Under the pieces are notes generated by a model that did no database searches, was not told the origin of the DNA, and saw nothing but the letters and a program-made list of their open reading frames with translations. From positions 4,402,001 through 4,466,000 of the forward strand of contig OX597823.1 in NCBI GenBank assembly GCA_951406725.2: a stretch of 64,000 bases of DNA, in the 5' to 3' direction. Origin of the DNA: Octopus vulgaris (lineage: Eukaryota). This document shows positions 19,343 to 20,293 of this stretch, one piece after another. Position numbers and translations under genes: made by a program. Position 1 is the first letter of the stretch. Each line of letters opens with the position of its first letter.

Positions 19343-20091
19343 ATAAAATATGTCAGTGTGTCATATCTCATTTACATAATCCAATGAGGTTGGCTGCTGG
19401 GTCCCGTATATTAAGGGTTAATCCAGGATTAGATATGCAACTAGTAACATGTCCCTTCCCTTATTGCCTGATGAATAGAATCACTGCTTATTGTTGCCAT
19501 TTCTTTTTATCCTCTCTATCTCTCCAGTGCCTGATCTATTTAAGTGCAAGGCGGTTGTCACCGAGAATGAGACCAAGCTCACCAGCACCTGCACAAAGGG
19601 GACCCAGAAAGAAGCCATCTCGTGTGCCATGGAAGACGTCATGAATCTAATCAGACTCTTGTCTATAACACTTAAAAACAACGAAAACTAAAACACTTTG
19701 ACTTCTAAAAAACTTGTTTGTTTTTCATTTTTCATTGTAATTGACAAGTTCAAGTTGGTGGTTCTTGGTTCTTACGGTATTAGGGGTTAGTCAGAAAGAA
19801 AGGGGACAGTGTGAGACAGTGGAAAATAGGATTACTATTAGAAAATCAACAATTTTGAACTCTAAAGAAGAACAGTTGTAGGATTGCTTACCTTTTATCT
19901 TTTACGTGTTTCAGTCATTAGACTGTGGCCATGCTGGGGCACTACCTTGAAGGATTTTAGTTGAATGAATTGACCCCAAAACTATTTTTTTAAACCTGGT
20001 ACTTATTCTATCGGTCTCTTTTACCAAACTGCTAAGCTATGGAGGTGTAAACAAACCAACACCAGTTATCAAGACACAAACACACACAGAG

Positions 20092-20149
<58 letters not shown>

Positions 20150-20293
20150 ATGTATATATATATATGTATATGATAAGGGTGGGACATATTATTAGTTACA
20201 TATCTAATCCTGGATTAACCCTTAATATACAGGACCCAGCAGTCAACCTCATAGCATTATGGAAATGAGATATGGCACACTGACATATTTTAT
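19343..20293. repeat. ~120-bp inverted repeat pair (19343-19464 / 20173-20293) enclosing terminal exon A
   Basis: ataaaatatgtcagtgtgtcatatctc...gtcccttcccttat is the near-exact reverse complement of ataagggtgggac...tgacatattttat. Confidence 0.9.
19528..19691 (+). CDS. Gene 1 terminal exon A ((L)PDLFKCKAVVTENETKLTSTCTKGTQKEAISCAMEDVMNLIRLLSITLKNNEN*)
   Basis: Strong pyrimidine tract plus CAG at 19525-19527, phase 1, C-X14-C-X10-C motif shared with three paralogues, TAA stop. Gives a 150-aa protein. Confidence 0.85.

Follow-up and report, generated by a model that had tools for sequence, protein, structure and literature searches.

We describe an octopus gene in which the proximal member of a set of four alternative last exons (A to D) is bracketed by the two arms of an inverted repeat, for which a genome-wide search returned no further copy. 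On a modest balance of probability, the repeat is a young local inverted duplication that is tolerated around an alternative exon, and we infer that an optional exon is the most permissive setting for such a pair. The arms are predicted to pair stably in RNA and to loop out exon A, and the reading of this stem as a splicing switch is plausible but unsupported. Positions below are those of the window, i.e., the whole stretch of 64,000 nucleotides that was analysed, which lies on contig C10.

The host gene and its four last exons

A translated search placed four paralogous segments, A to D, on the + strand, each behind an AG and in the same phase, and the gene comprises the following features.

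6761 to 6773, + strand: first exon, coding end; ATG at 6761, with loose contig ends before 8497 (X1, X17) and a fit to the N-terminus of P0006
8497 to 8696, + strand: shared exon 2, with the end of the signal peptide and the helical part; joint 8696>11150, GT..AG, in four of four runs
11150 to 11225, + strand: shared exon 3, donor for the terminal cassettes
19528 to 19712, + strand: terminal exon A, stop codon at 19689-19691, inside the loop; joint 11225>19528, GT..AG, in four of four runs
31232 to 31410, + strand: terminal cassette B, intact frame in the same phase, assigned from sequence alone
34789 to 34949, + strand: coding part of terminal cassette C, which follows exon 3 in P0005 and P0001
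38957 to 39117, + strand: coding part of terminal cassette D, which follows exon 3 in P0002

The start codon had initially been guessed at 8466, which was replaced by 6761 in view of the loose contig ends and the N-terminus of P0006. Contigs of all four runs skip the introns 8697-11149 and 11226-19527, both GT..AG, and it is solely for this reason that the runs were taken as RNA; with splicing to A in every run, A is not silenced. Public records carry A (P0006, P0003), C (P0005, P0001) and D (P0002) on the same upstream exons, and the multi-cassette gene proposed in the initial annotation is indeed real, with four cassettes. In the public records, no full-length protein using cassette B was found, and this cassette may be conserved but seldom used; a 59-aa protein, P0019, resembles it. 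Exon 2 has one match in the genome, which points to one gene with alternative last exons. As a crude measure of acceptor strength, the pyrimidine fraction is 0.89 for A versus 0.78, 0.67 and 0.59 for B, C and D, respectively. For proteins identical or close to the product of this gene, the source records give Octopus vulgaris, O. sinensis and O. bimaculoides as the species, and a literature search with five accession numbers of the gene found no mention of them. A paralogous gene lies 19 Mb away on the same chromosome (L003 5545-5706, C10:23212544-23212705; P0016, P0022); it has one cassette and, within the 40 kb covered, no comparable inverted repeat.

The gene product has 149-150 amino acids and probably a signal peptide; three of its four conserved cysteines are supplied by the swapped exon, and its relatives occur in chiton, limpet, abalone, vent snail and Argonauta. 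No Pfam family was found for the protein, and PF11630, the family of anti-lipopolysaccharide factors, was unmatched in all four proteins searched. The structure model (pLDDT 67.7) combines helices with a set of strands and ends in a further helix. At middling Z it is similar both to dsRBD folds and to shrimp anti-LPS factor: comparison with 2JOB gave Z 5.5 and rmsd 3.4 with 85 of 102 residues aligned, at rank 11 among dsRBD folds, and anti-LPS factor was listed first in the Atlas (score 0.82). Foldseek gave no match at E<=0.001, and a profile search of solved structures returned just a single chance match. The protein may have an anti-lipopolysaccharide-factor-like fold, which we treat as a lead only. 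In the chiton, P0008 carries three near-identical whole-domain copies in one chain of 420 amino acids with KR pairs between them, possibly a polyprotein where the octopus uses alternative exons. A partial homolog filed under Clostridium, P0011, comes from a 283-nt contig and is likely a mislabelled mollusc sequence.

The inverted repeat and the 3' end of exon A

The repeat and its immediate surroundings consist of the following features.

19343 to 19464, + strand: left arm, intronic, ending 63 nt upstream of exon A
19687 to 19740, + strand: likely poly(A) signal of exon A, with the variant hexamer ACTAAA at 19687 and a U/GU-rich tract past 19712; putative function
19890 to 20171, no strand: common SINE-like repeat and (AT)n tract, within the loop
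20173 to 20293, − strand: right arm, reverse complement of the left arm; its inner end adjoins the (AT)n tract
20304 to 20309, + strand: ATTAAA past the right arm, a putative distal poly(A) signal

Local alignment recovered exactly the arm coordinates of the initial annotation and its complementarity of roughly 90%, namely 111 of 122 columns (91.0%) with one 1-nt gap and an inter-arm spacer of 708 nt. The pair has a BLAST E of 3e-44 within the window; as had also been claimed, the arm occurs nowhere else there, since BLAST over the whole window gave no third copy at E<=1 (chance matches of 12-17 nt aside). The complementarity is far above chance, with a longest unbroken run of 32 nt and a score of 42 versus a maximum of 19.9 in 30 shuffles. 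The acceptor AG of exon A is at 19526-19527 and the first exon base at 19528, which bears out the 63-nt gap. The left arm leaves the polypyrimidine tract and this AG uncovered and overlaps only the most distal (19460) of four branch-point-like motifs, the others being at 19468, 19487 and 19506. Inside the loop, the SINE-like repeat (19890-20080) has 84 matches in a 744-kb genome sample, and the tandem repeat (AT)n at 20092-20171 abuts the right arm.

One contig of run X5 ends at 19712 and continues as AAAAA and adapter; its A-tail adjoins a genomic run of six A, and internal priming is possible. The 3' end of exon A is likely near 19707-19712, some 20 nt past ACTAAA, hence in the loop and about 460 nt before the right arm, and with the poly(A) site so far upstream, cleavage could pre-empt pairing of the arms. 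Longer RNA also exists, since an exon-A contig of X17 reaches 19977. The initial annotation had pointed to an ATTAAA just past the right arm; its position (20304) stands, whereas its link to the 3' end of exon A was dropped because the sole poly(A) evidence lies at about 19707-19712. The low contig depth at 20188-20631, junction-contig depths as isoform ratios, and word shares of 0.14-0.17 in eight runs, which are compatible with transcripts ending near 19712, were all left out of the evidence.

Copy number and genomic background

In the genome of 2.8 Gb, the left arm has two matches, itself and the right arm, and the genome-wide search proposed with the initial annotation thus returned a unique sequence. 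Two 24-mers of the arm, allowing up to three mismatches, gave 2 and 3 genome matches, and their reversed-pattern controls gave 2 and 4, so that the extra match is at the level of the controls. Each of these scans would find a copy diverged by 9% with a probability of 0.84 and one diverged by 15% with a probability of 0.50. As positive controls, two further inverted-repeat arms put through the same DNA search gave 1353 and 278 candidates, so that it does pick up families at 86-90% identity. A 27-mer of the arm had no match in metagenome contigs.

How often such a layout arises in this genome was estimated on 108 ten-kb loci (1.08 Mb), comprising 28 on C10 near the window or the paralog and 80 scattered ones, with pairs defined by arms of at least 80 nt at 85% and a spacer of 100-2000 nt, and with arms of at least 30% simple repeat dropped. 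Comparable inverted pairs numbered 38, in 25 of the 108 loci; the scattered loci alone held 25 pairs in 17 of 80. An exon of the size of A would fit wholly inside such a pair at 1.2% of genome positions, and the layout is thus uncommon yet unexceptional for a genome-wide scan. A pair with only two copies was seen once in the 1.08-Mb sample, and its loop is too small for exon A. This second genome-unique pair (L035 1811-2140; 80 nt, 91%), about 140 kb away, consists of a palindrome into which 171 nt of repeat-like sequence, including an (ATG)n tract, are inserted, and it indicates that unique inverted-duplication events do happen in this genome. Wider inverted pairs of common repeats also enclose exons of the gene (two around A, two around D, three around exon 2 and two around exon 3); no bracket comparable to that of A was found around C or D, and B is flanked by microsatellite arms only.

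The window holds further elements of this kind. Decayed palindromes at 38232-38537 and 39146-39341 (63% and 69%) flank cassette D, the latter with a relative at 15612-15795, and a MITE-like element at 29712-29960 has 60-nt inverted ends and many genomic copies. On the − strand, 30101-30625 has a 174-aa frame which, judged by eye, we take to be a decayed piece of a Tc1/mariner-type transposase, and the frames at 56600-58500 presumably belong to a broken reverse-transcriptase retroelement, again by eye.

Age of the arms and their substitutions

To look at relatives, four runs were examined on 19328-19484, of which X16 and X17 gave no contig, and X19 and X20 gave the left arm with its flanks. A right-arm contig came from none of the four; the filtered records leave holes and the right arm adjoins (AT)n, so its missing is not counted as absence. 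Relative to the window's left arm, organism E has a single listed substitution and a gap of 2 nt, with one further difference in each of its two contigs, and organism F has 7 substitutions in 120 nt and the same gap. The flanks of organism F have 0 changes in 35 nt (Fisher p 0.35); in this comparison with one informative relative, the left arm is hence not conserved above the flanking intron, and the check for conservation suggested at the outset came out negative for this arm.

Four of the seven organism F bases are those of the right arm, and at three of these four, organism E has the base of the window's left arm. This sharing suggests that the duplication took place before the split from E and at roughly the time of the split from F. 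The counts of private changes behind this dating are small, with 4 in the left arm, 7 in the right arm and 3 plus the gap in F. Intron pieces of organism D differ by about 7-10%, like the 9% between the arms. Among the 13 substitutions in the left, right and F left arms, 4 keep the pairing as G-U and 9 break the pair; the transitions are 4 G-U versus 3 A-C, with no G-U bias. Drift would give just such a pattern, though a long duplex tolerates decay. At 19356, both arms of the window have a TG run two bases longer than its counterpart on the left arms of E and F, for which slippage, an old polymorphism or arm-to-arm conversion are candidate causes.

Origin of the arms

Long inverted ends around a sub-kilobase segment with a gene piece, as seen here, are typical of MITEs and Pack-type elements, and the arm length and spacer would suit a non-autonomous element in a genome rich in such families. 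The initial annotation had offered a Pack-type transposon as the alternative, with the arms as its long terminal inverted repeats and exon A as the segment that it captured or moved. Whether for a MITE or a Pack-type element, this reading is now largely refuted by the genome-wide result together with the age of the cassettes, and we regard it as very improbable: only two copies in 2.8 Gb argue that the arms are not a transposon end, and cassettes 32-44% identical to A are much older than arms 91% identical to each other. Moreover, there is no target-site duplication flush with both arm ends, the best being 5 nt long and displaced by 6 nt from the right end (an old duplication that has decayed would look alike), no arm remnant was found near B, C and D or at the single-cassette paralog, and the exon between the arms is in use by the host gene. 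A Pack-type route to duplication of the cassettes, which are far older than the arms, was likewise dropped. Staggered breaks leave inverted duplications at the ends of inversions, and the arms might hence be breakpoints that were duplicated when a small segment was inverted, or else an older palindrome that received the segment with exon A, much as the unique L035 pair is a palindrome with a repeat-like insert. Against this, exon A is in the orientation of the gene, has the same cysteine pattern as B-D and, in the annotation of two named Octopus species, follows the same upstream exons, so that a double inversion or an intact transfer together with the acceptor would be needed; such a history also seems remote. 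Finally, no right-arm contig came from the two runs that gave the left arm, as would fit a right arm produced by misassembly or confined to the sequenced lineage. The arms nonetheless differ at 11 columns and four right-arm bases match the left arm of organism F, which is unlike an artefact or a very recent copy and makes this reading barely credible.

We favour a local inverted duplication, in which the arms would have formed by template switch or break repair. In the parts of the sources considered (PMC7954356, PMC11724301), inverted duplications by template switch and break repair are likewise local copies at a single locus, with no transposon family; the yeast events are mostly 5-34 bp and at the break, whereas the octopus copy is 122 bp and 708 nt off, and its assignment to this class is tentative.

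Predicted pairing and splicing of exon A

Folding predicts an arm duplex of -180.7 kcal/mol in the sense strand and an equally stable one (-181.8) in the antisense. In the best fold, 110 of the 122 left-arm bases pair with the right arm at a mean pairing probability of 0.89, so that the long double-stranded RNA anticipated by the initial annotation is borne out as a predicted near-perfect duplex in one transcript. The predicted loop contains exon A, its pyrimidine tract and AG, and three of the four branch-point-like motifs; any effect would thus be looping-out, not masking, and because the left arm is intronic, the duplex is possible in unspliced RNA only. A single RNA contig, which covers 53 nt of the left arm, has no changed base, though contigs lose rare variants. 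For neither arm was a second partner better than shuffled arms found in 11226-19300 or 20340-39200. Between the 1 kb past the exon 3 donor and the 600 nt upstream of A-D, docking/selector pairings also gave no real signal: the best ones lie at four different sites and were matched by 7, 11, 14 and 13 of 30 shuffles for A, B, C and D, and a docking/selector system was dropped as no better than shuffles. The proposal of a loop-out akin to RNA pairings of mutually exclusive exons thus stands as to the very stable predicted duplex, the looped exon A and its most pyrimidine-rich acceptor, and falls as to the docking/selector system. A self-complementary segment at 11426-11599 (174 nt, 88%), 200 nt past the exon 3 donor, partly recurs elsewhere in the sample.

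Known systems offer partial parallels, as far as the portions of the sources drawn upon describe them. In intron 4 of Drosophila Nmnat, distal splicing rises when the proximal acceptor, which is the stronger one, is looped out by a stem (PMC2724269, Raker et al. 2009); complementary boxes there flank this acceptor, which belongs to an alternative terminal exon carrying a poly(A) site of its own, and the C-termini of the isoforms differ, while the octopus has 122-nt arms not conserved above background, a likely poly(A) site within the loop and an effect that is predicted. For human complementary regions, RNA structure has been proposed to rescue transcripts from early cleavage, and the looped-out terminal exon of FGFR1OP2 resembles exon A in its long-range pairing and in the 3' ends within the loop (PMC8052449, Kalmykova et al. 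2021). The human pairs are defined by conservation, which the octopus pair so far lacks, and it does not yet qualify for the conserved Nmnat or human classes. PGRP-LC, CG42235 and Pip similarly have tandem paralogous 3' cassettes on common upstream exons; in the sections consulted, one docking site and a selector per cassette are described, pairing activates the cassette, and 3' cassette choice is also possible without RNA pairings (PMC6191721, Pan et al. 2018), while no such set was found in the octopus over the regions searched. A search of the cephalopod double-stranded RNA literature gave nothing on this locus.

A working loop-out of the Nmnat type, in which co-transcriptional pairing weakens the proximal acceptor and poly(A) site and directs exon 3 to C/D (or B), is the chief rival to drift, and we give it a real though minority chance; as part of that reading, a recent duplication would have been co-opted, or would act without base-by-base selection like inverted SINE pairs. 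The Nmnat-like geometry speaks for it, as do the extent of the predicted pairing, the pyrimidine-rich tract of A and the want of a comparable bracket at C and D, with microsatellite arms only at B. In addition, looped-out human exons are less included and 3' ends are enriched in loops (PMC8052449, in the portion cited), and the bases of F at 4 of the 11 arm differences in the right arm suggest that the pair has persisted since before the split from E. The left-arm data weigh on the other side, with conservation no higher than in the flanks, no G-U bias and no compensatory change seen in them; cleavage may come first at the likely poly(A) site, the single contig on 53 nt of the left arm has no changed base, and a left-arm contig of organism E runs unbroken through the 32-nt core, where one would expect an interruption if a second copy were identical. 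In the drift account, the arms would pair in nascent RNA running about 500 nt beyond the poly(A) site of A, the choice between A and the distal cassettes would mainly reflect competition of read-through with exon A, whose acceptor is strong and whose poly(A) signal is weak, and the stem would shift the isoform ratio little, the arms drifting and not being kept as a switch. The stem would be tolerated because skipping A still yields a full protein. Against drift, the 1.2% background is low, a two-copy-only pair is rare, and the repeat sits on the proximal cassette with the strongest tract, where weakening would help; the counts behind this account are also small, with 13 substitutions and one informative relative. 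Since a duplex of -181 kcal/mol survives the loss of many pairs, neutral-looking decay is compatible with function. A bolder proposal, which we consider somewhat unlikely, is a newborn switch: a duplication-born 120-bp stem would loop out the strong proximal exon together with its poly(A) site and would in this way tune which C-terminal half, out of four, goes to an ALF-like secreted defence protein, with editing of the stem by ADAR as a possible dial.

If the stem works, it would be a datable example of non-repetitive DNA giving rise in one step to a regulatory RNA structure, within a lineage of heavy RNA editing, and one-arm presence or absence among close Octopus species would provide a natural experiment. 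If it is neutral, it would be an ordinary inverted duplication, which persists because use of the exon inside it is optional. In either case, an uncharacterised, mollusc-wide secreted-protein gene with four swappable last exons merits a study of its own.
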